A stretch of DNA of 64,000 nt from Yuukianura sp. NJ FZ-2021. Taxonomy: Eukaryota. Positions 3,183 through 38,100 of this stretch are shown piece by piece. Numbering within the stretch: the stretch's first letter is position 1; every line of letters starts with the position of its first letter. Made by a program: the position numbers and the translations under genes. Location: the NCBI GenBank assembly GCA_046563655.1, contig CM102286.1, positions 6,634,001 to 6,698,000 on the forward strand, written 5' to 3'. The notes below the pieces were generated by a model. That model was not told the origin of the DNA. It was given only the letters and a program-made list of their open reading frames with translations, and ran no database searches.

Positions 3183-3756
3183 TGTTACGGGGCGTCGTAC
3201 TCTAGGCACCCAAAGTGCCTATACAACGTCCTGTAAGGGTCCTAACTCCTCTCCACTCAGGAGAGAACCAGAAAAACAATGCTCCAACAATTGCGCCCTA
3301 GCTAAATCAACGCCCTGCGCCCACTAAAGGCCAGGACAATCAGCAACGCAACAGAAGAGCAATGACCTCAAGGGTCAATGAAATGGTATTGTCAGTGGTT
3401 TATTGAAAATAAAGACTACCCACTGAGGGCATTGAAGGTAGCTCACTCAGAACCATCAGACAATAGAATGAAGACTAAGATCTAGATACAGCAATGCAAC
3501 CTCTATTTATAGGGGTTCTGGAGGAGTCAGGATTCACAGAATCCTACTCCTGTGCAAAAACACAAAGAGGAATGAACTCTAAAACAACACAGAAACTAGA
3601 CTAGAGTAATGAACTCTAACAAATGACAGACAGAAATAACCAGATAGTTGAACTCTAACAACTAACAGACAGAAGTAACTAGGGTAGTTGACCTCTAACA
3701 ACTAACAGGACAGAAATAGTGAATGTAAATGAAGTGCAGAAATACGTCTCGTAACA
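3183..3756 (-). repeat. 5' LTR (574 bp)
   Basis: Direct repeat of 579-1152, followed on - by the PBS. Confidence 0.93.
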
Positions 3757-11100: not shown

Positions 11101-14100
11101 TGTGAAAACGTGCAGGTTTATAATACTCAAGGAGCTCTCCTGGTGAAAATAGAAAGTTTGGAAAGAAAAGCTTTCTCTGCGAGTCCTTGTATAGTAGTTT
11201 GTGCGTATATTGTCACCTGAACACTTAGGAAGTTTCAGCATTTCAACGGAAGAAACCCACTTTCTTAAAATATTGGGTGATTTTATCAGCATTTGAAAAG
11301 TTGTTCATATTTCAGTTGTATTTCTTACCTTCAGATTTAAATTATGGCTGTTTGTAGTCGTTTTCCCATCATAGCTGTCACTTTTGAACTAGGAGAAATC
11401 AGATATCTCATAAAAGTGTTTATGACCAGTTGATTTTGCACTGAACGATGTCAGGAATAGTTCTGAGGTGCGGAAAAGACGTGAGAACAGGATGAGGCTT
11501 ATTTACTATTCTCATAAAAATATGAATCCACAACCCCGGTGCGGAACCATTGAAATTGCCACACGTCATAAAACCTTGCATCGAGCCTACGTCTGTCCTT
11601 GGAAAATAGGAGAACTGAAATTGGAATTTTATTATACGAAAGTACTATTCACACCGAAGCCGACAAGTCCCATTTCCCGAGCCAAAAGTTCAGTTTTATT
11701 TCGAATTGACTCGTTTAAATGAACACACGTCTTTGTACACATCTGCGTTTCTGAAAATTGTCTACGTAAACGCTCCCCCTTGATGAAGTAATAAAATTTC
11801 AACGTTTTTTGTTTTTGTCTGTTTGTTTCTACTTTTTTCTTTGTATTTTCGGTGCAATTTGGAAATCCAGTAATTCAAACTGATGCATTTTTTGTGTACT
11901 TTTTGATTGAAATTGACGCCTAGACGCAAACTGTTTCGAAAATAATTTAGTTCTCTTAAACCAGGTGAGAATTGGTCATACGTGAAATATTGGCGTTTGC
12001 TTTTCAAAAAACAACGATGGAGCTACCTTAATTAATTACAGGAAGAGTCATAAATTCTTTATATCCGGGCTTTTGGTTGTGGAAGTTCAAAGGAAGAAAA
12101 GAGAAAGTGACAGAGGAAGTTTAGCATCAGATAAAAGAGTAATCTGAAACTGTCGCCTTCCTTTTACTACCAAAAGAATTGTAATTTGAGTGAGAAATTT
12201 TAGTTTAAGTAAACGAGAAACTGAGAGTTTCAAACAAAATGGTTGGGATGAAGCAGAAGTGAAAACATAAAAGAATAGGAAGCGTGAAAGTTGTTCAAGC
12301 ATAAACACTCAGATATCGGAGCTTTGGAGACTTTCTTTTTAGGCTGGTTTAGGCCCCACCAAAAGTGTATATTCCATCATAGTCATCCCATGCTTTGTTT
12401 GATGAAATATGCACGTTGGTCCCGCTTTCGACCCACTTTATTCCTCTGATATTCCAACTGTCGTAGAAAGGGAGAGGGAAATTATTATAGTCGGATTATT
12501 TGGTTGAGAGCACAACGAGAACGTTAAGTAGTTTGGAAATCCGTAGTTGTTGCACTAATGCGGACTTAAAAGGTTGCTTTTAGTAAAGAATGGGAAGCTA
12601 AGGAGCGGAGAAATATACAAGTTAGTACATAGAAAAGCACAAAGCCAAAGTAGCAAATGAAAGTCAATGGTGCGAAAATTTTCTACGACTTGGAAGTTAA
12701 GCTATTCCCTTAAAAAGTCTATTATGGTTAAACGGAAAACGGCAAATACGAGCCTCTGACTTTTCTAATTTAGTCGAGCGAGATTTAAGAATAAGTGAGG
12801 GGATGATAGGAATCTTAAATGTGTGAATCCAATGTAGCTGGCTTTGGTTTGTGAATCCTGGAGTTAGTCTTAAGCCTACTTTAACTTGACTAGTGTATTC
12901 TTTGAAAAGACAAAGTCAGAGTAATATATTAAAAAGTTAATTGAATATTAGTGGAGCCAAACCAAAGAGTGGCGTAGATAAGCGTGAGTGGGGGCGAGGC
13001 TTGCACCCAGTTTGAGTCATTTATTTCTCGGTCTGTTCTGTCTCCCGCTCTCTCCGACTTTTTAATACTGTGCCAAGGAATGGCGGGTGACTTTCTGTGG
13101 CAAGGCCTGTTTCAAAGAAAGAGGAAATGGGTCCTATAAAGACTTCTCAATGAATTTATTGTATCTCCCCCCAGTCGCCATATTTTCAGTCCTTTTACTT
13201 ATCTTTCAGCACTCTTTGGACTTAATAACTTACTTTCTCCTTTGCGACTCGGACTCCAGAACGTCTTTGAAGGGAAAAGATAGGCTGAGGCACTTGGTGT
13301 GCTTTATGGCTCAGAGCATAATTCCACTCCCAAGTCAAATGTATAATTGAGGAGACGCAGTTTGCCTGGGTGTCTTATGCAAAAGTTTAAATAGAGTGGC
13401 TGTCCACTGTCTTTATTTCGGAGGGATTGTCTCCCCAAACTTTTCTCGTTTGGAGGAGAAAGGCAGAGAGAAAGTGCCTCAGAAGGATTCTTGGAATTCT
13501 GCATGCCAGGAACAGTCTGATAGAAAGTTAACCCAACTTTCTCCAACGCCCCGCCGCGTAGTTTCCACGCAGCTTGTCTTGTGCACTGGACAGATTAAAT
13601 GGAGAGTGTTTTTCTTGTTCCACAGGTACGACGTGAGGTCAAAGCCCCAGAGTGAGGCCAAAAGGTGGTCAGACGTGGGGGATCGTGTGTACTTCCAAGC
13701 CATGTCAGAACCAGCCCATCTTTTGATTAGCAACCTTCGGCTGGAAGATGAAGGTGTCTACAGATGCCGGGTGGACTTTAAGAATTCCCCGACGAGAAAC
13801 CTGAGGATTAACTTGACTATTATTGGTAAGCCCCTGCTTTTCTTTTCTCCACAATAGCTCAAATGACTTTCTCTTCACAAGTTATGTCTTTGTATCCACC
13901 AACTTGTGGCGAGGAGTAATGAAGACATTGATGAGTGTACAAATCACTCTGACATAGACATCACGAAATATAAGGATGGCTGTGCGTACAGCTTTCACTC
14001 AATTTTTGCAATCTCAGCATCTCAAATGCAACATTTGAAGTTTACATCAAATTCACAAATCATAGGTTAGTATTTTACTCATAGGTTTTTATTTGCATAA

Positions 14101-20100: not shown

Positions 20101-23100
20101 GCGGAGAAAGATTAGGTGTTATATCTTCTTGGCTGGAGATGAGATTGGATTGAGGTTATGTAGCTACTATACTAAAGTAATCAAAAGAAGGAGAACCTAT
20201 AATGGGAAGTTGGAAAATCAATAAATAATTTGTTGTTACAATTTCTGGTGTTTTGTAGGTCGACCGAAACCGCGTGTAAATTGGTGGCTGGAAAACGCCA
20301 TGATTGACGACTCCTGGGTGGACCGGAAAGATGGAGTTCTGGTCAATCACTTGAAGTATTCCCCACTTCAGCGACATCATCTCAACGCCCGATTCGTTTG
20401 TCTCGCCTCCAATACAAATCAAACACTACCTCAGTCTACCATTGCCATTCTCAACCTCAATTGTAAGTTTGTGGAAATCTCCTTTCCTCACAGTCCCCGA
20501 TCGCCCTATTTCTCAAAGTGTCAAGATGAAAGTTAGGGCTCCCCAGTATCAATTCAAAGACATTCCTTTTCGCAGATCAGAGTTAACTTTCTAAAAGGCT
20601 TTGAAAACTCTGTGGTCCACAATATTTGGGTAGACCAAAGTAAGAAACGTTGCAGGATTCAGGGAATTGTAGAAGTAGAAATCCTATTCCCTTTATCAAC
20701 CATGCCCAGCATCATCCAATTCAGAGGCCACCACAACTTTTAGTCCAAAGTTACTGGAGCTTTCATTTCCCCAGCAGCTCTCCTTCCGTTTCCTTTGATG
20801 GAGAGTCTCCGCTTTCTCTTTGTGTCACCACAGTTACAGCAGTCCATTCTCTCTCCATTTATTTCCTACTGCACAATCTTAGGCTTGAATCAATCCAAAA
20901 GGAAAGCTTAGGCTCTTCAATCGGATTTGCACCCTCTCTATGGTGTGGCACAAGTAGTTAGATAGTGTAGGACTCCACATCATTTATTTTTAGCACCATC
21001 GTAGGGGTTAGGTCTGACCACTCATACTACTGTTACAAGGGAGGAAAAAAATCAAAAACAAAAAATGTCGGCAAAAGTATCAAAAACAAAAATGTCGACA
21101 AAAAAAAATATCGAACAAAATGTCGACAAAAAATATCAAAAACAAAAATGTCGACAAAAAAAATTAAAAAAACAAGTAATGATATTTTTGTATAGAAATT
21201 TCGAACATTGACTCTAGCCTAGTGTCTAAGTGCTCGTAACTACTTCTCTACGGTCGCTGGTTCGAATACCACACGGGTCAACGCCTATGGTTAAGAAGTT
21301 ACAAGTACTTAGATACAAGACTGGGGTCGATGTTATTATTTTTTTATTTTTAGTTAGGGATTAAAAAAGTTTTCGGAAAAGTGTCTTTTCTCGAGAAAAA
21401 AGTTTTTTCTTAAAAAAGAAAAAAAAGTTCTTTTCAAAAATAACATTTCTTTAGAAAAAACTTTTTTTGAAAAAATTGAAAATAGCATTTCAAACGTTGT
21501 TCTGAGTGGTACTTAAACAGTGAGTTTTGAAGCTAGAAAGCATCAGTTCTGAAATGAGTAAGCATGTTTTCAGACCAATAGCATTTATTGTTAAGACAAA
21601 ATGTCGAAACGCGCAGCGCTTCCGATCACTACTGAGTCAAAGCGTCAACGTACTGAAGTGTCTGACTTTGAACGACTCCCCTATTTGGTGTATGTTGAAA
21701 TTTTTTCAAATCTGGACGCGATTAGTGGAGCACAACTCATCAAAGCGTTTCCACAGTTCTCAAGCTTGCTAAAGCCTAAAATTTTGAGTTTCTACAAAAA
21801 AGTTTCTCAGTATGCAAAGTATGTGATCACATTCGAACGTGATTTGAACGCGTTCAAATCTTGGCAACAACTTGCGGGACGAAAACTTTTTCTGCGTGTA
21901 TTATCCAAGTTAAAGAATTTTCCAATTGCACGATCGCTAACAGTTGAAAGCTTTATAGCTGAACTCGCAAGGTCTGGTTCTGTGGATCTTGAATATGAAA
22001 TATTTCGAGAGTATTCACTTGAAGAGCTGATGTTGATGACGAACAAATTCGACTTCCAACGTCGAGCTGGTAATGACCTTTATATAGAAGTCAAACATCG
22101 AAATTGTACTGTTTTCGGGAGGCTCGAAACACTTGAGACTCTTGACATGTTGTGGGATATATTCCATAAGAGCGAAAACCAAATGCTACAAGATTTGATT
22201 GGCCAAGCACAGAAGGAGCAGAACGATTTGCAAGACGCTATGGAGAAGAAAGAAGCTTCAGAAGCATACAAAACCAAAAAGCAAGAACTTCAGCGCTGGA
22301 TTTGCAACCGAAAAAAATTCAAGAAACGCCACTGTTTCAAGCTTAAACTAAGTGCGTATCACCGCCTGAAAGCCCTTCAACGGTTGGAGCAAGCGCAAAA
22401 ACATTGCAAATGACAGTTAAACATTTTTTTAATTGTACTTTAACATTACTCTTTCATAATTGAATAAATTCAGACTTATACATTTTCAAACTTTTTGTTG
22501 TTGGAGTTGTTTTATTTTAAGAGTTTCTTCGTTAGTTGTTTAATCCTTTTTATTTTGAGAATTTCGTTTTGAAGTCGATGAACTTTTAACCCTTTTTCTA
22601 TAATTGGGAAAAGGGTCGTTTCTGTTGAAAATCGTTTTGAGTTGTTGTCCGTTTAATATTATTTCAAAAGACATTTTAACCGTTGGAGTGTTCGTTTTTC
22701 TATATTTGGGGAAAAGGGTTGTTTTTGTTGAAAATCGTTTTGAAGCATTGTCCGTTTAATCCTTTTCCAAGGAAATTTTAGTTCTTGGAATGTTTCCGTT
22801 TGCTATAATTAAGAAAAAGGTCAAATTTCTACCTGAAAACTTGAGATAAAAAGGCCACTCGACTGCTTGACAAACCATCAGTCTCATCACGACTTCAATT
22901 GAAACTTCTCCTCAAGAAACTACTCCTCAAGTACTACAATGGTTGAAGCATACGCTGCAGGATTCGTAAGCAAGACTCTTGAAGATCGGGTCAAATGCTG
23001 GTGGAAGCAGGAAGAAGATGGAGAATACAAAGTCTTCATCAAGAAGGACCGATACTATACAACTGTGGAGATGAAGGAAATTCCATTTATCGTCTCGAAG

Positions 23101-26100
23101 CTTATTCTCTTCTTTCTTTCAACGGGAAATCCAGTAAGCGAGCTGCCAAACTTTGAACTCTTACTATTGGATTGCAAACAGCGTTACGCTGATAAGGGTC
23201 AGCAAGCAAAGAAGCCCAAAATGGACATTGTGGCAGAGGCAATGAGCAAAGCTGTCTGGAATCGCAAATCTCCATCTCTCAAGCCTCGCTTGAATGCAAT
23301 CCCTGAAGAAGACTCTGACGAAGTCGAGGGAAAATACTGGATTGACAGCGACTCAAAATTTTAAGCAATTTTTTAAATATTTCAGTTTTGTAAAAAAATT
23401 GTTAGTTTTAAGAATTGTAAAAAATAAATTTTTTGACTCGTACCAAAATGGTATTTAAGCGATCGTTCTTCATTCTAAATGTTTAGTCTAAAACGAGCAG
23501 CCATGGGAGACTTTTACGTAACTCTTCAGAGTGATTCTTCGTCAAATCATTATCCAGAAAACACAATTACAAATTTTAGAAATCATTTTGCAGAATCAAT
23601 TCGCTTAGACGGTGTAAAATACGAGGTGGCGTTAGTAGAGTGTACATATGTTCATCACGAGTATATGCTTCACAAGGAAGGATGGCTTCGACAAGTTGGT
23701 AACGGGTCATTCTTTGATGTGCTCAGCATTTCCTCGGAAGACGCTGCATTGATTCGAACAGCAGACGATCTTGCAAACCGTGTATCGGATAAGTTCGTGC
23801 AAATTGAAATTAAAAACTCAAAAGCTAGATTTGTCAAGAAACCTACCAAATCCTTTGTAAGGTTTAATGAAGAGGCCACTAAAATTCTTGGATATGACGA
23901 AAGAAAACAGAGTTTCGACTATGAAGTTTTTGAACCGAGTGGACATACACAACTTTTCATTTACTGTAGTATAATTGAAAACCAGCGCGTGGGCGGTGAC
24001 CTTGCGCCACTGCTGAGAAAAATTTCAAATACGGGGGACCACAAGAAGGTTGTAACCCGTTCGTTTCAACATCTGCAATACGTAGACGTTGTATTTGACG
24101 ACATTGACCATATTTGGATGTACATCATGACTGAATCTGGTGATCCGCCAGCATTTACAGTTGGAACCTTTTCTGCCACTCTACACTTTCGGCGCAAGCG
24201 ATACTGAGAGGGTATAAAACCGGCGCTCTCAAAAATTTGCAATCATTAACTCTTCAAACGTCAAACTGTCAACATGTACAAATGCAACTTGAGCGAGGAA
24301 GATTTCTTTAGAATTTACAATCCTCAGAGAGGAGGAGCTGTTGGATCAGACGGAGCTGTATTCTTCAAAGCCAATCAGTTTCGTCAGCGTGGTCATGGAA
24401 TTGGTGGAATTTTTGGGTCAATTTTTCGAAAAGTTTTACCATACGTGACCAAATACTTAATGCCTCATGCTAAAACTGCCGTAGCTGGTATAGCTTCTGA
24501 TGTGATTGGTGGAAAAAAGTCTGTAAAGGAAGCTATTTCTGAACACGGCTCGACGGCTTGGAAGGGAGTACTTAAAGGCGTCACAGACGGTATTCTTTCC
24601 ACTCAGTCTGGATCTGGACGTTCAAGGAAGAGGAAGCAAAAACGAAGAGCAAGAGCCGCTCCCAAGAAAAAGAAACCAAGAAATATATTTGAAGAACAAT
24701 GAGTTCCAAACACGCTCCTCACCCAGAAGTAGTTAGAAGTGAAACAGACATATTTAGTGAACCAGAAATGGACGTTAGTCTGCAAAGTAGTGGCATGTTT
24801 GAGTACCATCCATTGTCAGCGTTAAGTGAAAATGGAGGTCCAATTTCTTTTCAAGTCAAGGGGAACGATGTTCACTATGTCGATTTAAGTGAAACTTTGT
24901 TATACGTCCGCTGTAATATTTCAAAAGCAAATGGAGATAAACTCGATGATCGAGCTACCATGCGAATTGCTCCAGTCAACAACTTTTTACATTCGTTATT
25001 CCAGCAGTGTTCTGTGTTTCTCAATGAAACACAAATTACCCCAACAATGTCACTCTACCCTTATCGAGCCTATATTGAGACTGTACTTGCATATGGAGGA
25101 GATTACAAGGATACTCAAGCAGTGACAGCTCTTTACTTGAGAGATGAAGAGAATTTGAGTGACACTGACAGTTCCCACAAAAAGAGACAAGAATTGGCGG
25201 CCAAAGGCTTGGATATGATTGGACGACCGTTTGCAGACATCTTTGCTCAAACTCGCTACTTGCTTCCTGGAATTGACATTAGAGTTACTTTCAACCGCTC
25301 CACTGAAGAATTTGCACTCCACTCTCAGGCAGACAATACAAATCGTTACAAAATCAACATTAGCGAAGCAAGACTTTTAGTTAAAAAACATACACTGCTA
25401 CCGAATATTTTGAATTGTCATTTGAAAATGTGGGCTAATGGACAGCCGGCATGCTACCCAATGCGACGGATTGAGATGAAAACGTACAGCTTGCCCCTTG
25501 GCACTGTGTCAAATGTGAATGAAAACTTGATTAATGGACTACTTCCCGACAGAATTATACTTTGCCTAGTTCAAAGTGAAAAAATGAACGGAACTCTGAC
25601 TACAAATCCATTTGACTTTAAACCTCCAGAGTTGAGACAAATTTCCGTCACAGCAAACGGAGAACAACTTTATCATCAGGTTTACCAGTACAACAGTGAT
25701 GGCGATGTTCGAGTTTCTGAAGCATACTATGGAATGTTTAGCGGTCTTGGACTGTGTGCTAGCAATGAAGGGCCTGCTATTAGCCTTTCCGAGTTTACAA
25801 ATGGAAAGGCGTTTTTCATTTTTAACCTCAGAAACATGAATCAAGGCTACTGCCCCCCAAGACACGGAAGTATAAAAATCGTCGTTCAGTTTGCAAAACC
25901 TACCACTGAGGCTTGGAACGTTGTCTGTCACGCTGACTTTCAATCTACTCTGTATATTGACGAAGGAAAGAACGTGTTTTTCAAAGACTATTCACACTAA
26001 TGGACACCACTCAAATTTACAAGTTTTTGTCAAATATGACTCGTGGATCGAGAGCATATTTCAATGTAATACCCTGCGACCTACTTGAAAAGCTAACAAT

Positions 26101-29100
26101 TGCTCACTTTCCAGCCTATTTGGTTGTAAATAACAAGCCTTCTGATCATCCTGGAGAACATTGGGTGGCAATCTACATTGGAGGCAGAACTGGACCAATC
26201 ATCTTCTTTTGCTCTTACGGACTTGGACTAGACTTTTACCCTATCGACTTTAGAAATTTTGTAAATAAGTTTTCTTGTAAAATTTTGGAGAATACTAGAC
26301 CATTGCAAGCCCTCGACTCTAACGTTTGTGGACAATATGCAATCTACTTTTTGTATAAAATGATGCATGGCTGCTGTATTCTGTCTACTTATTGTCACTT
26401 TTCTCCCAATAGACAATTAAATGATAAAAAAGTACAAAAGTTTGTAATATTAAAAAATCCTTTATTGAATTCAAATTGTAAATTTAAACACAAAATAATA
26501 AATCAATGTTGTACAAAATTGTAAATTTTTGTTGTTGTTGTATTGAAATTTATTTCCAATTGGGTGGGGTCTTCCACTCTTCAAGAAAGCTGTCATCCAT
26601 TCGAGCACGTTTCCGAGATTTGTGCATGCTTTTTCGATTTTTTCCATTAGTAGAAACGTCAGAGTCGTCTTCCGTGAAGAGATGGAGGTGTGTTTTGGGT
26701 AGGATAGACAATGGAAATCTTTTTGAGGTTAAAAAGTTTTTTATTGGTTCGAGTTCATCCTTTGAAATTTTACATCTTCCATTTGACAGTTTTTTAAGTA
26801 TTGAATCAAACGTAGAAATTGGTAGTGATCCACCGTCAAAGTTTACAATTCCTGAAGCTAGTGTAGTTCCATTGTCAATAAAAAACTGCAACAGATGAAC
26901 TCCAAGTCTTGTACGACCACCAAAGTCAAATTTCTCAACTGGCGATGGGCTGGGCGGGGTGTCCACTGATGGAACGTCTACGGGTGGCTCAGTCACGGAT
27001 TTAACAAGACTTTCTGTTTTTTCACGTTTCTTCTTGTCTGCCAATCGTCGTAAAACGTCTTGAAGTAACTTGTTTTGAATTTCTTCCGAATCTTTAATAT
27101 TGAGCAACTGATTTTTTTCAATCTCTAGTCTCCCCACTTCAGTTGGTTTAGAAGTTTGAGACATTAAACGCTCAAAGTCTTCATCACTAATGACTTTGTA
27201 TTTTGTTGGCATGTTTATAGGAGTTTGCCTAAAAGTTCACCTAGAACTGGAATTGCTGCACCAAGTAACAATGGTAGGAATCCACCCTGTTGAACAAGAA
27301 GACGACGCTTGTGATCTGCTTTTCCTTTGCGCGATATCAGACGTCTGATGTGATCCTTGTGAGGAATGAGCCGTTTTATAGCTTTTGCAGGAATAGCCAA
27401 ACGTCCATTATACACATTATGTGCACACTCGCAAATAGCTCGAATTTGTTCTGGACTCGCACTATTTAAATGCAAAGCTCGTTTCTTTTCAGAGCGAGAA
27501 TTCAAGTTTTTCAGAAAATTAAGATGCTTATTGATTTTGCTTCCAGCCATTTTGATTGCTAGAGACTGAATGATACAAATTGAACTGTGCAGCGTCCTTT
27601 TATTTCATTTCCACCATGGACACCGATCTGAAACAACGATGGTTAAACACTTTACTACCTGGAAGTTTTTCTGGAGCATTTGGGTTTCAAAAAGATTCAA
27701 ACACTAAGGTGTCTCCACACAGCGTCAGGAAAATTTTGAAGCAAATTCCAAGTTATCAACTACATCGACCAGTTCGATATCGGTTTCCACGTCGGAGAGT
27801 TTATGTTGGAGGCATGCACGAACAGTATTGTGCAGACTTGAAAGACATTCAAAACATGTCGGGAGCCAATAATAAAAAGAGGTTAGGTTAGGTTAGGTTA
27901 GGTAAGGTTATGTGGGTTAGGGTTTTTAACAAAACTCGAATTTGTTTTTTAGATATTTGCTGGTGGTAATTGACGCTTTCTCAAAACAAGGCTGGATCGA
28001 AGCAACTCCAAACAAGACAGGACCAGTTGTTCTCGCAGCATTTAAAAAAATTTTAGAGCGCAGTGGAGGAAAACCAAAAAGAGTGCAAGTTGACAAAGGC
28101 TCTGAATTTCTTAATCAACATATGAAGACTTTTTTGAAGCGTGAGGATATCAAGCTATTCTGGACGCATTCACCACTAAAATGTGTGATTGTAGAACGAT
28201 TCATTCGCACACTCTTTATGAAAATTCAACGTTACTTGACACATAACAGAACTAAAAAGTTTGTTGATAAATTGTCAGATTTTGAGAATCTGTACAATCA
28301 TGCATATCATCGAAGTATTAAAATGGCGCCGTGCAAAGTAACTGAAATTAATGAGGATGAAGTACGACGCAACTTGTACCCGGAAGTTGCAGTGGACTAT
28401 AAAAAGCCTAAACTCAACGTAAATGACCTCGTTCTTGTCGCCAGAATTAAAAAAACTTTTGAAAAGGGTTACTCAACAAACTATATTGACGAAGTTTATC
28501 GAATTGTGAGAGTTATAGCAACTAAGCCATACGTTTACAAGTTAGAAGACCTTGAGGGTACCCCTATTCTGGGTAGTTTTTACGACAAGCAGCTACTGAA
28601 ATTAGATCAGTAGCCATTCAGAGCGGGACCAGAAAACATGTGTTTTTTCAAACTTTGTGAGTACTTTTTGACCAAGATGTTTGGAAACAAAGAAGATCCT
28701 AGCATTTCCGTCTGTGACGACAACAAAATCAGCTGTATGTGCTGTTCAACCACCGCAAGACGAGGCTCAACCAAGAAACAACATACTAAAACTATTTTGG
28801 TTACTGAATTGTAAAAATACACTTTATTTAAAAAAAAAATTTTTTTTGAATAAATCAACTCTCGAAATACACAAAATTTTGTTTTGAATTTTATTTATTT
28901 ATTCATTGACATAAACGTAACAATTTTCGGGGAAAATGCTACTTCTAATTCGATAGTCGTCCTTTTGTGATTGAGTCAGATCAATTAAAAGATAGCCGTA
29001 GGGCTTTGCCATGCTCTCCTTGTAAGCCAGATCCATTGTAGCGTTCTTTTTTCCTCCATTCATTTGCCGTCCAAGACATGAGACAAATGCAGAGTCTCGC

Positions 29101-32100
29101 GGATTTTTCATCAGAACCAAGTACTGACAGTTGAGTGTAATTTCCCTCAGATTTTTATGGAAAAAATTCTGAACCAAAATAATCAGCGACACATTACGGT
29201 GATGAGAAGTTCTCGTGAAGGCTGCTCCAACGTCTCCCTTCTTTCCAGCTTCATGCATTAGGTCATCAAGCACCATAATTGACGGTCTGTCTGTGCCATC
29301 ATGCCATTTCTCTGGTAGTCCATGAACAAACTGGATCCCAGGGATTTTATTCTTTAATTCTCCAAAAAGTGCAGACTGCCATTCGGTGTAACAATAAGTT
29401 ACATTTGCAATTCCAATTGAAGTTTTTACAACTTCGTTTCTTCGAATCAAAATTTCCTTAACGAGTGTGCTTTTGCCTGTGTTTGTCATTCCGCTCACAC
29501 ACATTGTAAACGGTGCCACAAGTTGCAAGTCAATATCGTCTCCAGATCGTGGGTGCTGAAGTAGAGTGGCGGCGGCGGTGGGGCTTCTTCCGGTGGTGGG
29601 GCTCACCTCACCGATGGCTGGAACCTGCCAGGATATGGCGGCGGCGGCGGTAGGAGATCTAGAGAAACAGTTAAAACAGGTTTTCTCGTGACGCTTTGCA
29701 ACGTCCGAACGCGAAAATAATTTACCGCAGACAGAGTAGACACGCATAATTCAAAGAACAAATGACGACTAAACTCAATTTCAGAAATGACTTGGTTTAT
29801 ATACAAAAATTTTTTATTATACAAGTACTTTAAAACTATTTTTTTAAATTTTTTAACCCTAACCTAACTTAAAATAAAAAATTTTATTTTGGAATGTCTT
29901 TATGACCAAAAGCTAAAGTATTAACGCTATCCACAGCATATCGTTTGGTGTCTAGACCGTTGAGAGCTTTCTTCATAGTAACCTCTGTAAAAATGCGGTG
30001 TTCAACGCTTCGGAATCCTCTCATTGTGACCATTGTTTGCACGTTTTCGTGTAAGACTTTTTCGTAATCTTCAAACCTGATCTGTCCGTTGACTGCTGTT
30101 TTCGTGATTCCTTTTGCCTTCTTGGTGTACTCATCCTTGAAGAACCATGATCCGTCCGGCTTCTTCTGATAAATATTTTTTCCCGAGAGGTCACACTTGA
30201 AGGACTGGAGTTTGAGACTTCGGATTGTGTACATCTTCGGTCTCGGGCAGTAGACATGGGTAATCACCGCTCCAGCAGCTTCGTCCTTGAATTTTCCGAG
30301 GACTTTTTTGTTGACAGGATCATGAAATCTTCCAAATTGTGGATGATCTGCTGGATATTCACTCATGTCGTACAACTCCTTGTTCTCCAACATGTCCTGA
30401 TACACATCCTTGGCTTGAATGTGATAGATGAATGAGTCTGCAAGGAAAATAAAAATTTGTTACTAACCTAGTAAAGAATTTTGACAAAAAACTAAAAGTA
30501 GTTTGTACTTACCAGTATCAGTATATATTAGACGACACTTGTCTCCATACTTTGCCTGCATGCCCACCCTGTGATGACGATACATGATGCTTTTGGCCAG
30601 CTCAAGTACCGTAACTCCTGTGAAGATTGGTTTGGCTAGTGTCACTTGGAGTTTTTTCATCATAAAGACGCAAGTCGTCTCGTTGATGGGTATCACGTTC
30701 TGAACTGTGGGCTTCTTATTGTAGTAAAGCGCCTTCTCAACCGATGTGACAATGTGCGCATTCTGACGGTTTCGGACTTGTTCGATTGTCTTTCCGAACG
30801 CTGAGTTGTTGAGTAACTTCCAAAAGTCCTTAGCAAAGTCGCTGGTGGCCTTTTTTCTCATTTCGGTGTTGTAGTCAATAAAGTCCTTCATCCAAGCGTG
30901 CTGCGTGAACGAAATACCTCTGTGAATTTTTGTGACTTTGACTCCCATCGCCAAGTATTCCTTGAGAATGGCGTGATGAAGAATGTAGCTCTTTTTGTTG
31001 TTCAAATCCGCGACAAGTTTTTTAACTTTGAACAATCCAGGACCAGCGTTGAGGTCGTCCAACAGTTGATGCTGATGAGTAGAGAGCTCGTCCATTGTGA
31101 CAGTTCTCGTGGTCGGAGCTGGAGGATAATCATTAAGCTGATCGTGGAGTTCGGGGTCAATCTCCAGGTCAACCTCTAGTAAATATCCAGTATCCTTCAC
31201 CCTGTCCGTTTCCGCAATGAATCCGTCAATATCTCCCAAAATTTTATCCATTTGAGCCTGAGTCAGCCAACGAAAATCTCCAACGGGAAGCGCCAGACTC
31301 ATTGCTTTTCCCTAAAAAAGTATAATAAAAAATGAAAATTCAGACACATTTTCATCAATTGAAATAAACTACTAAAATATAAATTACTAACGTATAAATT
31401 ATTCGCGTCAATGTAAATGATATAATAGATGGGCTTCTCCGGATTATACTCGTCGGCCATGTAGGGATTGTTCGCGGTTGCAGAACGTCTAGATCCTACG
31501 CACACGAACCCGCCTAGTTTAAAAAGAAGTGTTTAGTTTTCAGCAATTTCAATTATTTAGGTTAGGTTAGGTTAGGTTAATATAATTTCTTACCCCTGAT
31601 CGAATGCTCTAAAAAGCAATGCATTGTAGGGTCGGTGATTAGCTCCAGTTTGACTCCAGACTTCTTTAGAGCACAATCAATGGCCATCATTGGAAGCGAA
31701 TAGTAATGACCAAGCTCCAAACCGTAGCTGTCCATCATTAGCTTCCTCACTCCTTCCATCACGTCAGCCAGAAGTGAGACGTCCAAACGAACGTAAAGGT
31801 CGTGCCATTCACCCATATTTTGAATATTGAAGCTTTCCCATACCTTCTTGGCATGCTCGTAAACTTGATCTTGAATCGTTGATTCAGTTAGGTCGTTGAA
31901 AAACGCCTCTTTTGGTGGTAGACTGTCCATCTCAAAGTCTTCACAGGATTTCATGAGTGAATATGGGTAGGCACCTTTCTGGAAAAGGAGATCAATGTTG
32001 GCTCCATTGTCGACTTCATGCTGGAATTCTTGACGAGTGATTGGAAAAGTAGCATTGGGGTCTTGGCGCATCACCTTAACCAGACCGTCTAAGGATTTGA

Positions 32101-35100
32101 GGGTAAAACCGAGACTGTCTGTGAATCGCAGTTTGTATTTTTCTCTTCTTCTCACGTTGCCAACCAAGTCATTCTCGTCTTCTTCTTCCTCCGCTTCTCC
32201 CGAATACTCTGGAGTAACGGTGACACACAAGTACTTCTCGCTGCTTTTTGGAATAACTTCAACTTTCTTGATGATTTTGTCTTCGGTTAGCTTTCCCATG
32301 GACTGGATAAGGAAGTGGGCGTCGTAGGAGGAGAAGTTGTGTAGGAACACTGGAAATTCCTTTTTGATTTGCGCCTGAAGGTTACAGAACTGGTGTGCCA
32401 TTCCAATGTAATTAAAAGGCGGTAGGTGTGTATGATGTCGAACTTTGACTTCGCCATTGAAGAATGCTTTCTCGCAAAAGCAGCATTTTCTCTCACGTTC
32501 TGAAGCCTCACGCTGCTCAGCGGTCATGGTTTGGTCGAGCATCCTCGGGGCAATCTTCTCATAGTCATCTACTTCCTTCCCGAGAGTTTTGGAAAAGCGG
32601 AGAATGCTCTCAACAAAGTGAGCAGCAACATCTTCGTCGTCGTCGGTCATGTGGTAGCATTCACCGTGACGACGTTTTCCCTCAAAGTCGACGCAGACCC
32701 ATGCGTATCCACAAGCCTTGTGAATATTTTGACGAGTTGAATTTTCCTTGACTTCTTTTTCTCGTGTTCCCTTCATTGCTTCTTTGTGCCGTTGACGGCA
32801 AAATTCGTGCTCGCAAGTGGAATCGAATTTGTTTAGAAATGCCTCAAAATCAGCATAAAAGCGGAACGGCATTGTTTGAGTGCGAGCCCACTTGTCAAAT
32901 TTTAGTTCGCATTTATTTTTGTCTGGATATCTGACTTTTTGAAGTCCGAGCGCTGCACAATATGGGAGGTGCTCCTTTAAAGTTCTTGGAAGCACAAAGT
33001 TTGAAAGACAGTTGCGGCAGATATGTTTGGTGCGATGACCGTTAGGAGACGTCATAAGCGCTTCAAGATTGCGGATAAGAATGAAATGAGAGTTATTACC
33101 TTGCATGAGGCACATCAGATCCACATGAATACGTTTGGACTCCTTTGAGTTATAAAGGAGGGATATGTTGTCCTGCATGTACTTAAACAACTCGACATCT
33201 TCCGCTTTGTTTTCCTTTGATTTCTTGCGATTGTTGGCGTTTTTTCGCTGTGGAGCCGCAGGACCGTCCATGTCATAACCCAGGACTGTCAATGATATGT
33301 TTGGGTTAAGCTCTTCGAAGCGAGGTAGTTGCTGTAAAGTTATTGGAAATTGTAGCCCCTGAGTGTTCACTTTTGAAACATGGGGAATGTAGGACCGAAC
33401 CAGTTTGTCCACCCGGCACCGGTTTGGTCCCGGAGGAACACCAGCAATTTTGTCGTGTGCAAGCACAGACCAGAGAAAACACTGATTGTGGGAGTTTGAC
33501 GCAGACACTTCACTGTTGTTAATATTTAGCAAAGTTTTATTATGTTCCGATAGCGGAAACGGTGTTTCCACATAAGTACCAATTTTTGTGAATTGGTATT
33601 TTGCGGTTACGAATGTGAAATCGGAAATATGATCCAAGTCCCACCCACTGCCTTCGTTGGTAAAGTTTTCAATTTGTGAGGTCATTTGTTGACCCATGAT
33701 CGTCCACACCTTTGGAATGCTTTCATCGGTGTAAACCAGATGGCGATACGAGGTGAAACAGCCACGGTTTGTTGCAACTAGTCCGTTGGAATTTGTTTTG
33801 GTGAAGTTGCAAACCATTGAGAAAAAAACTTTCAAGTTTTTCCAGTTTTTTCGGTCTTCTTTGATGCATTCCGTGGATGAATTGTAGACACACTTTAAGA
33901 AATCCCGTTCGTCGACACCATTTTCACATCTGAATTGGTCAATTTTGGCCCTGTATTGTTTAACAACTTGTAAAGATGTTAAAACTGGCTCTAAAGGGAT
34001 TGGTTGCAAGTGTGGTGGCAGCAGACCCCCTGTTTGTGATGAATTCGAGAAGAAATCTGGATGCATCTCATAAAAATGTCTCTGCATTTCATCCCGACAC
34101 AGAAATGTTAGGTTGCATGGTGGACACTTTATTTCGCGATAAGCGTTTAATAGGTCGCTTCCAGATGGCATCTGTTGATGAGGTTGTGGTTCTTCATCTT
34201 CATGTTGAACGTGTGTGTGAATAAGCAGCTGATTTGCACACGGGAAATTTTCGTTACAGATGTAACATAAGTGACGACGTTTAGCTGATGGGCCTGAAGA
34301 TGGAGATGCTGCTCTTTTAGACATCTTCTAAAAGTTGAAATGAAAAGTAAAAATGAGTAATTTAATAATTAACTAAGTAATATTTAATAGTTGTGAATTT
34401 AGTATTTAAGACAAACCGAGCATCGACTCGACTGTTATTTATTTGCTGTTATTTAACTAAATACTGCTATTTAACTTAAATAAATTAAATGAAATTAATC
34501 GTCAGTCCACTGAAAAAAGTGGTTTTTCAGCCATAACTTTTTTCACAAGAGACATAATTGAAAACTAAAAGGGCCAATCGATTCCCCATACAAATATACA
34601 TCAGAAATAATAGTTTTACTGTTGAAAACTGAAAAGTTGAAAAAATTTGAAAATTTTTAACTTGAATAGTGCGTTTGAATCTATTCATTTCAAACAACCA
34701 CTAGCTCTGACAATCATCAAAACTTAAAAAGTCTAAAGTCTAAAAGTTTTAAAGTTTCCATTTTCACATTAAATTATAACTAAAATGGCAACAAACTCCA
34801 CCACACCTACACCACCACCGGCTCCACGGATTCGACTTCCAAACGCGTCAAAGGTCAAGATGGATAATCTGAAGGCACTGATGCACAAGGCGTGCACTAA
34901 TCAGAAGTACGTCAACTCTGTGGGGTCATCAACAACTGCAGAGCGACGTCTTCCAGCGTACTTCTATTTCCATTGGGAGGACATTCTAGAAGTGTTGCTC
35001 TTCGATATGAAAGGCAGACCATCATCGATACCACGTGTGGTTCGGGAAGACTACACAACGGTAGTGGACAACTATCTTAAACAAAGGTAAGTATGCATTT

Positions 35101-38100
35101 TCTTTCGGTAATTTTTAATTTTTTAACTAATATTTCGTTTATGCATGGGCAATAGGTCTGCACAAACCTACCGTGAAAATCTTATATTCATGGTGAATGA
35201 TATCGTTCGATGCCAACGAGGGATACACGAAGTACATTCGTACTTCATGTTGAAAAACGTCAACGCGAGGCATCGCTACGCGTGGATCAATTCAGTCCAT
35301 GCGAAGCCTCTCAAAGACATTGGCAGAAGCAAGACTGAAATTCCAGCAGAGAGACTTCATTGGTCGAGAGAATTTCCCACCAACATCAAATGTTCAAAGT
35401 TCTACTATGATCATCAAGTGGTCAAGGTGGAGGAACATTGCGTCGACGCCCTGGAGACAAAACCAGCAATCGGGACTTATCCAGTCATTCTTATCGCATT
35501 CATGAAGGTAAGTTGTCTTAGTTATACTTTTACAACCTTTACCCTTTACTAGTTAATAATATATTTCTTTACAGAAATTGATGGAGAAGAGCACCTGTGC
35601 AAAGAAAATTCATCACATCCCGACGGAGCAAGCGTTTCGCACTGCGCCATATGACGTAATTAAACACGTTCAACTTGGTCTTGGATGTCATTACTCGGAC
35701 ACAAAAGCGGCAGCGTTCATGAGACCGACCATGGACATTTTAGCCATAATGGAAGTACCGTTTCTGGCAATGCCAAACCATACGGAAATTCTGATTCTGA
35801 CAGTCAAACTGCCGGGACATATTCTACTGGTGGCGGTTGACATTCCTCAGTGGTAAGTCTTCTACGTTTTAAATAGTTTTTAATGTTTTAATGTTGATGT
35901 TAATTTACTAATTCTAGGAAAGGATACATTTACGACACATTCGAGCCAGATAAGTTATACAACATGAGAACCCTCGTTGACAGAGTACTCCGGAGAAAAT
36001 TTTTCAAGCCATACTCGCTACAATGGGACTACCAACCTCACGTATACGTACACCTGGGTCCGGATAACAACTGTGCCAGAATTGCTGCACACGCAGCACG
36101 GATGATTGTGGAGCATGGCGTTGCAGATGTCCATGACAAGTTTGATCAAGCTGGAGTGCTAACCACACTGCAGCTAATGATTGACTATAGCAGAGAGGCG
36201 GTCTTTCGCCCACCCGACAGGCCATAAAGAAATATTCATGTGAATTATTTTCATTTTGTTTTTATTCAACTAATCATATTTTATACATCTTTTAATTTAT
36301 AATTTTAATTTATTTTTTATTTGGTGTTTTATTTCTTAAAAACTTATAAAATTAATAAAACAATTTTAAATTACAACTTTTCAATTGGATTCTTCAATAT
36401 AGCGATGAAAGTGAAGGCACGATGTTCCTTTAAGCTCTGGGAAAAAAAAAATTAAAGTTGTTAAAATTAGTATTCATTCTTTTAAATTCTTTTAATATAA
36501 AACAATTTTAACTTTAATTTGAATTACCTTAGTTACTTCTGTCCCAGAGCCGAAGAGCTTCACGACGATGGTACATGTTCGACTTCAGAAATGCTGTAGA
36601 TTTCTTAAATGCCTTCCGACGACGAATCCATCGTTGGAATTTGTCTTCGCGCAAGCGTTGGAGTTTTTCTTTGCGCATTTTTAATTGATATTTTCGACGA
36701 GATTCGTCCAGCTCTTTATCGAATTCAATGGATGACTCCACAGTTAGCCGCTGGAGTTCCGGATTTCTTTCCCCGCCATGTTGTGCGCCTTCAATGCTTC
36801 CAAGGGCTTGATACGTCTCGTATCTGCAACCGTAGCGACGAGGTGTGATGCTGATTACGATGTCGTCCCGAAAAATCCCGCGCTCAAAGTCGAATTTTTC
36901 AACGAGCGGTAGTAGTTCCTCGATGGAGCAATTTTTGAATATTGCGCTCTCAACCGATATTCGATGTGGCGCGATCGCAGTCAAAAAATTTTTCACACTA
37001 AGTAAGCGTCCAATCGGAAAACGCTTTAGACCCGACAGCACAACTTTAAACATTTGCTTCTTGTCGAATTCAAAATGGACGATGTGTGTCTCACCAACAC
37101 TGATAACGTGTGTGGTGTACTCGGCAACTTTCGCCCCCATCCTTTCCAGCATTGGCTTCAGTATGTTTAAAGAGCTTGGAAAAACTTTAGCAAGCTCCAA
37201 AGCGCTAGACCTGTCCAAATTTGCGAATATTTCTAGTTGGCACAGGTATGGGAGTTGATCAAACTCGAATTGTTTAGCCATTTTGAAAAAAGAAAAAATC
37301 CTTTACTTTAGAATTACTGCTTTAAAAACAAATTTTAAGCTGTTGGTGAGAGCAGAATGAAGTTGAAAATGAAGAACTTTTCAATTTTTTTGTGTCAGAC
37401 AAAAATAAAAAAGTATTTGTTTTGTCCCAGGGCGTTGGAGAATTCTAGGAATTCACAAACTCGAACTGAAAAAAATTTTTTTTGTTTGTCAGTGTGGTCA
37501 GAAATGAAAAAGTTCAAAAGTGTACAAAAAATATCCATCTTAATCCGGAAAAAGGTTGGGTTTGCATTCCAATCCCTTTTCCAAAAATATAGTGCCAAAA
37601 AATATCCATCTTAATCCGGAAAAAGGTTGGGTTTGCATTCCAATCCCTTTTCCAAAAATATAAACTAATTGTCAATTATAATTGACAATTAACCTAACTG
37701 ACTCTAACCCTACGATGGTGCTAAAAATAAATGATGTGGAGTCCTACACTATCTAACTACTGCACAGGTTTTTACTTTCATCTTTTAGTTTTCTAAAGTG
37801 CGTAACATTCCCCAGCCTAACCTTAATCCAATTGCCAGGATTTTCATAGCGTAAACAGGATTTACTAAAAGAATCTGGAATGTTTAGTATTATTAAATAT
37901 CTGCCAAGTATTAAATTTTGCCGGATTCCACCACACAAAAAAAAATTCTCGTAAGGATACTACTCCATTTTGCAGTTATTTACAATGAATTAAGTGGGTG
38001 GGGTTGAGAAATGACGAGGGAAGTTGGTGCTTGATTTAGGAAGGAAAGTATGAAAGCTCCATTTGTGCTCAATGGTGAAAGTTGGTGGAATGCGGCTGGA

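Follow-up and report, generated by a model that had tools for sequence, protein, structure and literature searches.

The locus considered here lies within a 64-kb stretch of DNA, analysed at its full length and referred to below as the window, which holds about 47 kb of host DNA and a whole element of the Polinton/Maverick type (20953..37761, 16,809 bp, no strand assigned), annotated on the basis of its pair of terminal inverted repeats (TIRs), an rve integrase and capsid genes. Polintons, or Mavericks, are integrated, transposon-like relatives of adenoviruses. The left TIR (20953..21011) and its partner on the right (37704..37761), likewise without assigned strand, align by blastn over 59 nt at 98.3% identity, and 54 nt of the left repeat pair with 37708-37761 at 100% complementarity. 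The element is bounded on each side by GCACA, a direct repeat of 5 bp (20948-20952 and 37762-37766); the target site duplication (TSD) of Polintons is usually 6 bp. The rve integrase at 27930-28613 scores 43 bits against a cut-off of 32.6, and the major capsid protein (MCP; 24699-26000) has 319 homologues, with one UniRef name reading "Major capsid protein" and the best named relative, at 44%, coming from a springtail. Homologues of the MCP, penton, protease and ATPase are syntenic across related loci. A pPolB-like ORF is suggested by an Atlas lead alone (score 0.97; PF03175 in 26-36% of the members of the nearest clusters, in which arthropods are the commonest taxon), and comparison of the polymerase ORFs with Pfam, PDB and PHROGs returned chance-level rows and nothing significant. 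TIRs, a short TSD, an rve integrase and double-jelly-roll capsid genes, with PolB by that one lead, place the element among the Polintons/Mavericks, and from its sequence it looks largely intact: the TIRs are 98-100% identical, and the breaks in the polymerase ORF are common to relatives. In the host DNA, an exon with an Ig domain found no match when compared with longer proteins.

The feature with which we are chiefly concerned is a 131-nt imperfect hairpin (21204..21334, + strand). It occupies subterminal non-coding DNA, with the left TIR 193 nt away on one side and ORF1 267 nt away on the other, and no ORF of at least 100 aa overlaps it. With 45% GC between flanks of 25-26%, the hairpin is a GC island; two AT-rich tandem arrays, both exclusive to the left end of the Polinton, border it. 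Between the TIR and the hairpin lies an A-rich array of 4.5 copies of a 28-nt unit, each with a ATGTCGAC core (21045..21170, + strand; TRF score 157), which is not present at the right Polinton end, and no element similar to the hairpin was found at that end either. ORF1 (21601..22413, + strand, 270 aa) is the first ORF inward of the hairpin and an orphan with a paralogue at the opposite end: the terminal ORF on the right (36529..37281, - strand, 250 aa) is 36% identical to it (E 1e-35) and has a weak F-box-like N-terminus, the F-box match of which reaches 15 bits, under the cut-off of 20.5. Neither the protein collection nor a set of 80 related loci contained a homologue of ORF1, and its absence from the latter suggests that the whole left end is lineage-specific.

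The hairpin was first noticed as a 42-column pairing of 21204-21245 with 21293-21334, and in this respect the preliminary description is confirmed: the columns comprise 33 Watson-Crick pairs, 5 G-U pairs and 4 mismatches, exactly as it had claimed, the mismatches being two A-C and two A-A oppositions. The pairing is, however, longer than first claimed. It extends as an ungapped palindrome of 61 + 9 + 61 nt (21204-21264 / 21274-21334), the 61 columns of which hold 42 Watson-Crick pairs, 10 G-U pairs, 4 A-C oppositions and 5 others around a 9-nt loop, with a minimum free energy (MFE) structure of 52 bp at -57.6 kcal/mol. Folding of the slightly wider segment 21195-21350, as had been suggested, gave -59.2 kcal/mol on the + strand, against -31.8 +/- 3.6 kcal/mol for shuffled versions (z -7.67; 0 of 200 as good), and -44.4 kcal/mol on the minus strand (z -4.98). 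This puts the + strand 14.8 kcal/mol ahead of the - strand, and both fold far better than shuffles. When stability was scanned across the 64-kb window in about 2,554 segments of 150 nt, with a 25-nt step, the hairpin took rank 1. An excess of G-U over C-A oppositions had previously been read as mildly favouring an RNA structure on the + strand; the counts of 5:2 stand, but they fall short of significance (one-sided binomial p 0.23), and the corresponding counts over 61 columns are 10:4 (p about 0.09). We regard this excess as suggestive only.

Signals of the kind found in type-2 genes of RNA polymerase III (Pol III) are built into the same palindrome, with an A-box-like TAGCCTAGTG at 21215 and a B-box-like GGTTCGAAT at 21259, spaced as in a tRNA. 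The A-box-like motif TAGCCTAGTGT (21215..21225, + strand) agrees at 10 of 11 positions with TRGCNNAGTGG, which we take to be the A-box consensus. The B-box-like motif GGTTCGAATACC (21259..21270, + strand), located at the apex of the hairpin, matches exactly over its first 9 nt the presumed B-box consensus GGTTCGANNCC, after which one inserted base shifts the final CC and produces an 8-nt "T loop"; this insertion, we infer, may weaken the binding of TFIIIC. The combined pattern TRGCNNAGTG-N25-50-GGTTCGAA has a single occurrence in the 64-kb window, and none of 100 dinucleotide shuffles contained it. Further GGTTCGAA sites at 61807 and 14520 were judged by eye not to be tRNA-like. Downstream of the stem, a candidate Pol III terminator (21339..21351, + strand) consists of a T7 run (21339-21345), an A and a T5 run (21347-21351). 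The T7 run had been noted as following the hairpin, which it does: it starts 5 nt past the last paired base and is the first T run, and the T7 and T5 are the sole runs of at least four T in 21195-21360, the hairpin itself containing neither a T4 nor an A4 run. Because the first T run comes directly after the stem, a Pol III transcript is predicted to match the hairpin in extent, although a T run in this position is not improbable by chance, given flanks that are rich in T runs. The palindrome starts about 11 nt upstream of the A box, at the distance expected for the start of a type-2 Pol III gene. With the caveat of the insertion in its B box, the segment has the sequence features of a type-2 Pol III gene, namely an A and a B box 30-60 nt apart followed by at least four T.

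Resemblance to a tRNA does not extend much beyond these motifs. The preliminary description had envisaged two mutually exclusive folds, a cloverleaf and the long hairpin, but the 75-nt segment proposed for the former (21208-21282) folds at -16.1 kcal/mol, a value equalled by 67 of 200 shuffles (z -0.33), and its MFE structure has a 10-nt loop where a tRNA has a 7-nt anticodon loop on a 5-bp stem. Computed for 21204-21343, the hairpin reaches -58.3 kcal/mol against those -16.1. Detector programs, to which the question had been referred, sided against a tRNA: ARAGORN reported 0 tRNAs at its default, 95% and 90% thresholds and, at 80%, a tRNA-shaped but anomalous "tRNA-???" (21209-21282) whose anticodon has 4 bases, while the Rfam tRNA model (RF00005) had no match at E<=10 in either 1,001 nt or 96 nt. 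The default ARAGORN results, Rfam, the 10-nt loop and the chance-level energy of the cloverleaf all speak against a canonical tRNA gene. Since the cloverleaf stands at chance level and no detector accepts a tRNA at default settings, the idea of two competing folds is weak, and because default ARAGORN and Rfam see no tRNA, the case for tRNA ancestry is one of motifs.

Copies and relatives of the hairpin were sought at several distances. Within the window, including its host DNA, there is no second copy; two 19/22 matches near 990 and 3600 are chance matches that belong to a host tandem repeat. No 21-mer of the hairpin recurs elsewhere in the window with up to 3 mismatches, so that no siRNA-type target is in sight there. 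An exact 30-mer of the hairpin had 0 matches in the viral contig collection, in which no relatives of the MCP and ORF1 were found. Related Polinton loci were gathered by a metagenome scan with MCP alignment, which retained 80 of 262 relatives (365,478 nt). A counterpart of the hairpin was found in 0 of these 80, none of which is both close and long, by blastn, ARAGORN, the A + B box pattern or a covariance model of the hairpin, and blastn matched neither Polinton end region to any of them. The four closest loci (L001, L003, L024 and L062; 73-76% MCP identity) measure 1.2-2.4 kb and end before the corresponding region, and the longer ones have an MCP at most 56% identical and are without ORF1 and ORF2; with no locus both close and long enough, the comparison is not a fair test of conservation. 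In one distant relative, L014, the genes of the capsid module are directly preceded by a long inverted repeat that is unrelated in sequence to the hairpin.

We tentatively favour, as a reading that we would not yet call probable, a type-2 Pol III cassette that is an orphan, derives from a tRNA gene and has as its predicted transcript an shRNA-like hairpin of ~140 nt. In its favour we count the stability of the fold and its bias to the + strand, the paired boxes, the position of the T7 run, the tRNA-shaped ARAGORN call at 80%, the Rfam match to RUF6-5 far under its threshold, the ORF-free GC island, the largely intact Polinton and the published precedents discussed below; against it stand the empty comparison with 80 loci (none of them both close and long), the insertion in the B box, the default tRNA detectors, the non-significant G-U excess, the T-run-rich flanks and the lack of a 21-mer target in the window. 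The cassette most likely would have originated when the 5' portion of a tRNA-like gene was duplicated, in inverted orientation, downstream of the gene itself. TFIIIC and TFIIIB would recruit Pol III, which would initiate near 21200-21208, terminate within the T7 run and so release an RNA of about 135-145 nt. This RNA is predicted to fold as a single long imperfect hairpin (about -58 kcal/mol) rather than as a cloverleaf (-16 kcal/mol) and, by analogy, might serve as an shRNA-like or pre-miRNA-like substrate of, or competitor for, the host dsRNA machinery of the Exportin-5/Dicer type; it may benefit the Polinton, as a decoy or regulator, or may simply be tolerated.

The same palindrome might, somewhat less plausibly, be an inert relic, that is, a tRNA pseudogene or tRNA-like fragment that underwent local inverted duplication and has since drifted by substitution, with no meaningful transcription and no role. 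Rejection by the default tRNA detectors, a cloverleaf energy at chance, the insertion in the B box and the non-significant G-U bias are all consistent with such decay, as are arms that differ in 19 of 61 columns when G-U is counted, much as in a drifting palindrome, and the want of a counterpart in 80 related loci (none of them both close and long). Drift of this kind is harder to reconcile with a palindrome that is still ungapped over 61 columns, 52 of which are pairable on the + strand, with the persistence of a GC island amid very AT-rich, repeat-rich DNA, and with A and B motifs that are the best-preserved tRNA features, in a joint spacing that no shuffle reproduced. Moreover, the Polinton looks young or intact, which implies that the divergence of the arms arose while the element was still propagating. 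That the hairpin might instead be a host non-autonomous repeat (a tRNA-related SINE, a MITE or a foldback element) inserted into this Polinton copy or a recent ancestor, its link to the Polinton being accidental, strikes us as improbable. A and B boxes are typical of the heads of tRNA-derived SINEs, the GC island lies within AT-rich repeats, and none of the 80 related loci, with the limits of length and distance already given, has the feature; in addition, a 9-nt direct repeat, ATTAAAAAA, at 21163 and 21360 bounds a 188-nt segment that contains the hairpin. This candidate TSD is, however, of low complexity, stands 33 and 26 nt off the stem ends and is marginal (p about 0.04; 41 of 1,000 flank shuffles contained a repeat as long), and the hairpin ends themselves show no TSD. 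Nor is there an A-rich or simple-repeat tail in either orientation or a second copy in the window with its host DNA, and long palindromes are not normal for SINEs. Should either of these two readings prove correct, the feature would be an ordinary decayed tRNA-like palindrome.

Position bears more directly on another possibility, which we consider unlikely, namely that the palindrome is a DNA-level cis element of the Polinton and not an RNA gene. It could then act as a chromatin barrier of the tDNA type, bound by TFIIIC and shielding the Polinton from neighbouring host chromatin, as a palindrome that forms a cruciform or binds proteins during replication or packaging at the left end, or as a part of the promoter of ORF1. 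Insulators made of tDNAs or B boxes are established in yeast and mammals, and a subterminal non-coding site between the TIR and ORF1, set between two AT-rich arrays exclusive to this end, would suit such a function; so would the far better than random folding of each strand and the unrelated inverted repeat upstream of the capsid-module genes of L014. Yet a DNA palindrome needs no G-U-tolerant asymmetry, and the + strand is nonetheless the better folder by the margin given above; the end of the stem at a T run and its start at the expected Pol III start would become meaningless coincidences; and nothing similar was found at the right end or in the 80 related loci, none of them both close and long.

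If the Pol III cassette is real, it would illustrate how inverted duplication can turn a captured tRNA gene into an shRNA, and a Pol III hairpin gene in a Polinton would be a concrete candidate for a small-RNA counter-defence or for a regulatory RNA. Little is known, to our knowledge, of how Polintons handle host RNA silencing. We give only a small chance to the more ambitious proposal that this Polinton lineage makes a Pol III hairpin RNA from a captured tRNA gene and thereby swamps or reprograms the Dicer/Argonaute antiviral pathway of its host, in which case a ~60-bp shRNA-like molecule would be produced in bulk while the element is active. The decoy or miRNA role against arthropod RNAi put forward in the preliminary description is purely conjectural. 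If the more ambitious proposal held, the hairpin would be a functional counterpart, among the transposon-like relatives of adenoviruses, of adenoviral VA RNAs and of the TMERs of the herpesvirus MHV68, and Polintons would have their first example of a non-coding RNA that counters host defence. The literature searched contained no paper joining "polinton" with "VA RNA", and among the papers with "polinton" and "polymerase III" none was, by its title, about a Pol III RNA encoded by a Polinton.

The hairpin can be compared with several known systems. VA RNA is built of a terminal stem, a central domain and an apical stem, and acts mainly on PKR. Three reports describe VA RNA I and II as highly structured, ~160-nt Pol III products with internal promoters, whose terminal stems are substrates of Dicer and competitors of the RNAi machinery (PMC3643585, PMC2777419, PMC6599070). 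Like the Polinton hairpin, VA RNAs come from a Polinton-related virus lineage; unlike the three-domain VA RNA, the hairpin is one unbranched structure near a genome end, in a host that is likely an arthropod. Membership in the VA RNA family itself is not borne out, there being no match to the Rfam VA covariance models at E<=10 and a single unbranched fold. The TMERs of MHV68 cluster at one genome end, and in each of them the tRNA-like part folds apart, with one or two separate pre-miRNA stem-loops downstream of it. They are described, in PMC4337559 for example, as Pol III units with a tRNA-like promoter module that give rise to hairpin-derived small RNAs. The tRNA-like sequence of the Polinton hairpin, unlike that of a TMER, itself constitutes the 5' arm and apex of the sole hairpin, which speaks against membership in that class as well. 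By analogy, the hairpin could still work like a VA RNA or a TMER.

The best Rfam match was to RUF6-5 (RF01581), which aligned over the full model (1-156) at 25 bits against a gathering threshold of 70; homology to the Plasmodium RUF6 RNAs is rejected on this score, far under the threshold, and the family, which PMC9670795 describes as transcribed by Pol III, is an architectural look-alike. In both, a hairpin-like RNA of ~150 nt, predicted in the case of the Polinton, has an apex that resembles a B box and a 3' end rich in U, but RUF6 belongs to an unrelated organism and has an unrelated role, in var gene regulation. [quoted passage not shown] PMC12220804 also tabulates ncRNA hits in PLVs, 10 of them labelled "miRNA", which could include comparable elements. 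The supergroup, then, does acquire Pol III tRNA-type genes, but those tRNAs are detector-positive and presumably decoding, whereas the Polinton cassette is no tRNA and forms part of a long hairpin. As a working analogue, the pre-tRNA-Ile/miR-1983 system of mouse and human comes nearest. PMC6912820 describes pre-tRNA-Ile as the product of a type-2 Pol III gene whose primary transcript, with its 3' sequence, adopts a long hairpin in place of the cloverleaf; XPO5 exports it, and Dicer processes it to miR-1983. In miR-1983 the source is a functional cellular tRNA gene, of which the hairpin is a minor fate, whereas the Polinton hairpin is rejected by tRNA detectors, has a much longer stem (52 bp) and resides in a mobile, virus-like element. 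Both involve pairing between tRNA-like sequence on the 5' side and an extension at the 3' end, and by computation the Polinton sequence would likewise be a Pol III unit of the tRNA type in which the long hairpin with 3' sequence is preferred over the cloverleaf.

The most stable structure in the window is a hairpin formed by a 131-nt palindrome at 21204-21334 (+); it is confirmed, and it lies beyond chance. Re-reading matched the sequence first reported for 21204-21345 exactly, and a recount of the arms as originally drawn (21204-21245 against 21293-21334) agrees on 33 Watson-Crick pairs, five G-U pairs and four mismatches (two A-C and two A-A). The palindrome is longer than first reported, running ungapped over 21204-21334 as 61 + 9 + 61 nt, with 42 Watson-Crick, 10 G-U, 4 A-C and 5 other oppositions in its 61 columns. 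In its minimum free energy (MFE) structure, 52 bp (43 Watson-Crick, 9 G-U; -57.6 kcal/mol) form one hairpin without branches, and 1x1 mismatches divide the stem into helices of 14, 2, 13, 6 and 3 bp. When the full 64 kb were folded in 150-nt segments advanced by 25 nt (some 2,554 of them by our own count), it ranked first and was the sole single long stem among the top ranks. With short flanks (21195-21350), the plus strand has a folding energy of -59.2 kcal/mol, where dinucleotide shuffles average -31.8 +/- 3.6 (z -7.67; none of 200 as good); the minus strand is less stable at -44.4 kcal/mol (z -4.98), an asymmetry of 14.8 kcal/mol in favour of plus. The preliminary description had also taken the surplus of G-U over A-C oppositions as mildly favouring an RNA on the plus strand; the direction stands but significance does not (5:2, p 0.23; 10:4 over all 61 columns, p ~0.09 by our own arithmetic), and the excess leans towards selection on plus-strand RNA.

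The same segment carries motifs for RNA polymerase III (Pol III). Against the A-box and B-box consensus sequences, TAGCCTAGTGT at 21215 fits the former at 10 of 11 positions, and GGTTCGAAT at 21259 matches the first nine positions of the latter exactly, with one extra base before the final CC. Singly such motifs are not rare in the window (two exact GGTTCGAAT, four TRGCNNAGTG); as the pair TRGCNNAGTG-N25-50-GGTTCGAA they occur once, and in none of 100 dinucleotide-preserving shuffles. The T7 run reported behind the stem is present at 21339-21345, starting 5 nt past the last paired base, and together with a T5 run at 21347-21351 it accounts for every run of four or more T within 21195-21360, an interval free of A4 runs. 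The hairpin is 45% GC against 25-26% in the surrounding DNA, and since those flanks are full of T and A runs, a T run just behind the stem is not improbable by itself. Given the A and B motifs and the T7, a type-2 Pol III transcript would start a few bases 5' of the A box, stop in the T7 and match the hairpin almost exactly; the segment 21204-21343, of predicted transcript length, folds at -58.3 kcal/mol. On paper, the anatomy of a Pol III hairpin is real.

As proposed at the outset, the hairpin lies inside a Polinton. The 16,809-bp element is of Polinton/Maverick type: it is delimited by terminal inverted repeats (TIRs) at 20953-21011 and 37704-37761 (54 nt perfect, 59 nt at 98%), with a 5-bp direct repeat, GCACA, on both flanks, and it holds an rve integrase (43 bits, above cut-off), a major capsid protein (MCP) with 319 homologues (best 73%), and penton-like, protease-like and A32-like ATPase ORFs whose synteny extends to related metagenome contigs. 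The best named MCP homologue is a springtail protein (44%), and UniRef names one relative 'Major capsid protein'. For the large polymerase-like ORF, Pfam, PDB and PHROGs gave nothing significant; its nearest Atlas clusters (0.97), mostly arthropod, carry DNA_pol_B_2 in 26-36% of members. This gene (29884-34324, -) is split over three ORFs, 31577-34324, 30463-31302 and 29884-30393, which recur as separate tblastn segments with short gaps in related Polinton loci (all three in L009 and L040, the first two in L007 and L008, the last two in L070), a pattern that suggests conserved introns rather than decay. Ig-domain-like exons flank the element at 13630-13857 (+) and 44278-44754 (+) (V-set 27.6 bits; Ig_3 24.7 bits, below cut-off), and the Polinton probably sits in an intron of an animal Ig-superfamily gene; a homologue search with one such exon found none.

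Within the element, 193 nt separate the hairpin from the left TIR and 267 nt from ORF1 downstream (21601-22413, +). It lies between a tandem array (21045-21170), in which a 28-nt A-rich unit with a ATGTCGAC core is repeated 4.5 times, and AT-rich repeats of 17-19 nt. The right end has no hairpin, and its repeats differ, comprising 1.9 perfect copies of a 71-nt unit (37525-37662) and a 26-nt perfect palindrome (37666-37691). We speculate that these asymmetric, end-specific subterminal repeats could be packaging or protein-binding sites. ORF1 and the last ORF (36529-37281, -) are inward-facing paralogues (36% identity, E 1e-35), the latter with a sub-threshold N-terminal F-box match (15 bits vs 20.5); because of this paralogy, the ends look like remnants of a much longer ancestral inverted repeat with a lineage-specific accessory gene. 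Either the left end acquired the hairpin or the right end lost it. At 22593-22820, in the gap from ORF1 to the following ORF, there is also a direct repeat of ~125 nt (79% identity) whose copies overlap in tandem.

The cloverleaf drawn from 21208 is unsupported. ARAGORN found no tRNA in the window at default, 95% or 90% thresholds; at 80% it placed a 'tRNA-???' on 21209-21282, with an anticodon of four bases and a shape unlike the fold first drawn. Searches of 1,001 nt and of 96 nt against Rfam returned no tRNA at E<=10, and the cloverleaf-shaped MFE structure of the 75-nt tRNA-like part (-16.1 kcal/mol) is at chance level (z -0.33; 67 of 200 shuffles as good). The supposed two mutually exclusive folds thus reduce to one strong fold and one chance-level fold, and the case for tRNA ancestry comes down to a 7-bp acceptor-like pairing and the promoter-like motifs.

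Relatives were sought by a metagenome scan with an MCP alignment, which kept 80 loci of 262 relatives (365,478 nt). None of the 80 gave a blastn match to the hairpin or end regions, an ARAGORN tRNA, the A+B box pattern or a match to a hairpin-derived covariance model. The four nearest in MCP (73-76% identity) span only 1.2-2.4 kb and end short of the hairpin region; the longer ones are at most 56% identical in MCP and are without ORF1, ORF2 and ORF16. ORF1 had no homologue in a large protein collection, neither it nor its right-hand paralogue had one in the 80 loci, and the viral contig collection (viral_contigs) contained neither the hairpin nor MCP or ORF1 relatives. Judged by these loci, distant or short as they are, the cassette is not shared by Polintons at large. 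Three hairpins scored at least 29 when the window and 365 kb of related DNA were scanned for inverted repeats: that at 21204-21334, one in L020 and one in L014 (44% MCP identity). The L014 repeat (146-364; near-perfect, with 76-nt arms and 67-nt loop; MFE -125.9 kcal/mol, z -15) lies ~85 nt upstream of a 739-aa ORF, the first gene of the capsid module; its sequence is unrelated, and its internal T4 runs and lack of a B box make it a different kind of thing.

Tentatively, we read the hairpin as an orphan cassette of the type-2 Pol III class that yields an shRNA-like hairpin RNA and goes back to a tRNA gene; an inverted copy of the 5' part of that gene, placed downstream, would have given the long palindrome. 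The motifs, their spacing, the fold, its strand asymmetry and the position in the element are the observed basis. That a host repeat had inserted into the Polinton seems improbable: the 64-kb window holds no second copy, and the stem ends show no A-rich tail or target-site duplication. What keeps this explanation weakly alive is a low-complexity 9-mer, ATTAAAAAA, found in direct orientation at 21163 and again at 21360, on either side of 188 nt that include the hairpin; 41 of 1,000 flank shuffles had a repeat as long. Elsewhere, near-identical stretches at ~900-1100 and ~3500-3700, some 2.6 kb apart and with a ~30-nt tandem motif (GTTAGAGTTCAACTA..., minus strand), are a host duplication or repeat; matches there to a hairpin arm (the sole weak blastn hits and 21-mer near-matches) were rejected as chance level. 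The palindrome might instead act as DNA, perhaps binding TFIIIC as a barrier, serving replication or packaging, or forming part of a promoter, which we consider unlikely; that it is an inert relic is likelier than that, if less so than our own reading.

Under the orphan-cassette reading, Pol III would produce an RNA of ~135-145 nt folding as an shRNA-like hairpin, and we infer that it could be exported and diced and might benefit the Polinton. No hairpin 21-mer recurs elsewhere in the window with three or fewer mismatches, which excludes a perfect-match siRNA target in the element or neighbourhood; if the RNA acts, it would serve as a decoy, recognise seed-type targets or reach loci beyond the window. 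A VA-RNA-like counter-defence role in Polintons is a long shot. If the cassette is real, Pol III-made viral or tRNA-derived hairpin RNAs would gain a further form.

Capture of a tRNA gene would be unsurprising, since such genes have been found in polinton-like viruses and virophages (558 in 8,300 genomes; PMC12220804) and in MELD viruses (PMC8502044, Figure 6). In the literature searched, no paper joined polinton and VA RNA, and the titles of those naming polinton and polymerase III do not point to a Pol III RNA encoded by a Polinton. The top Rfam match, RUF6-5, spans the full model but scores 25 bits, where the gathering score is 70; RUF6 is described in the abstract of PMC9670795 as a Pol III-transcribed Plasmodium ncRNA family, and the likeness is one of architecture, without homology. 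The hairpin does not belong with adenovirus VA RNAs or MHV68 TMERs, the viral analogues proposed at the outset: unlike the former, it is a single unbranched stem with no Rfam VA match, and unlike the latter, its tRNA-like part forms no separate fold. Its helices and 1x1 mismatches resemble pre-miRNAs and the VA terminal stem. By analogy, the closest working counterpart of the putative cassette is the pre-tRNA-Ile/miR-1983 pathway, in which Pol III makes a tRNA precursor that XPO5 exports and that is then diced (PMC6912820).
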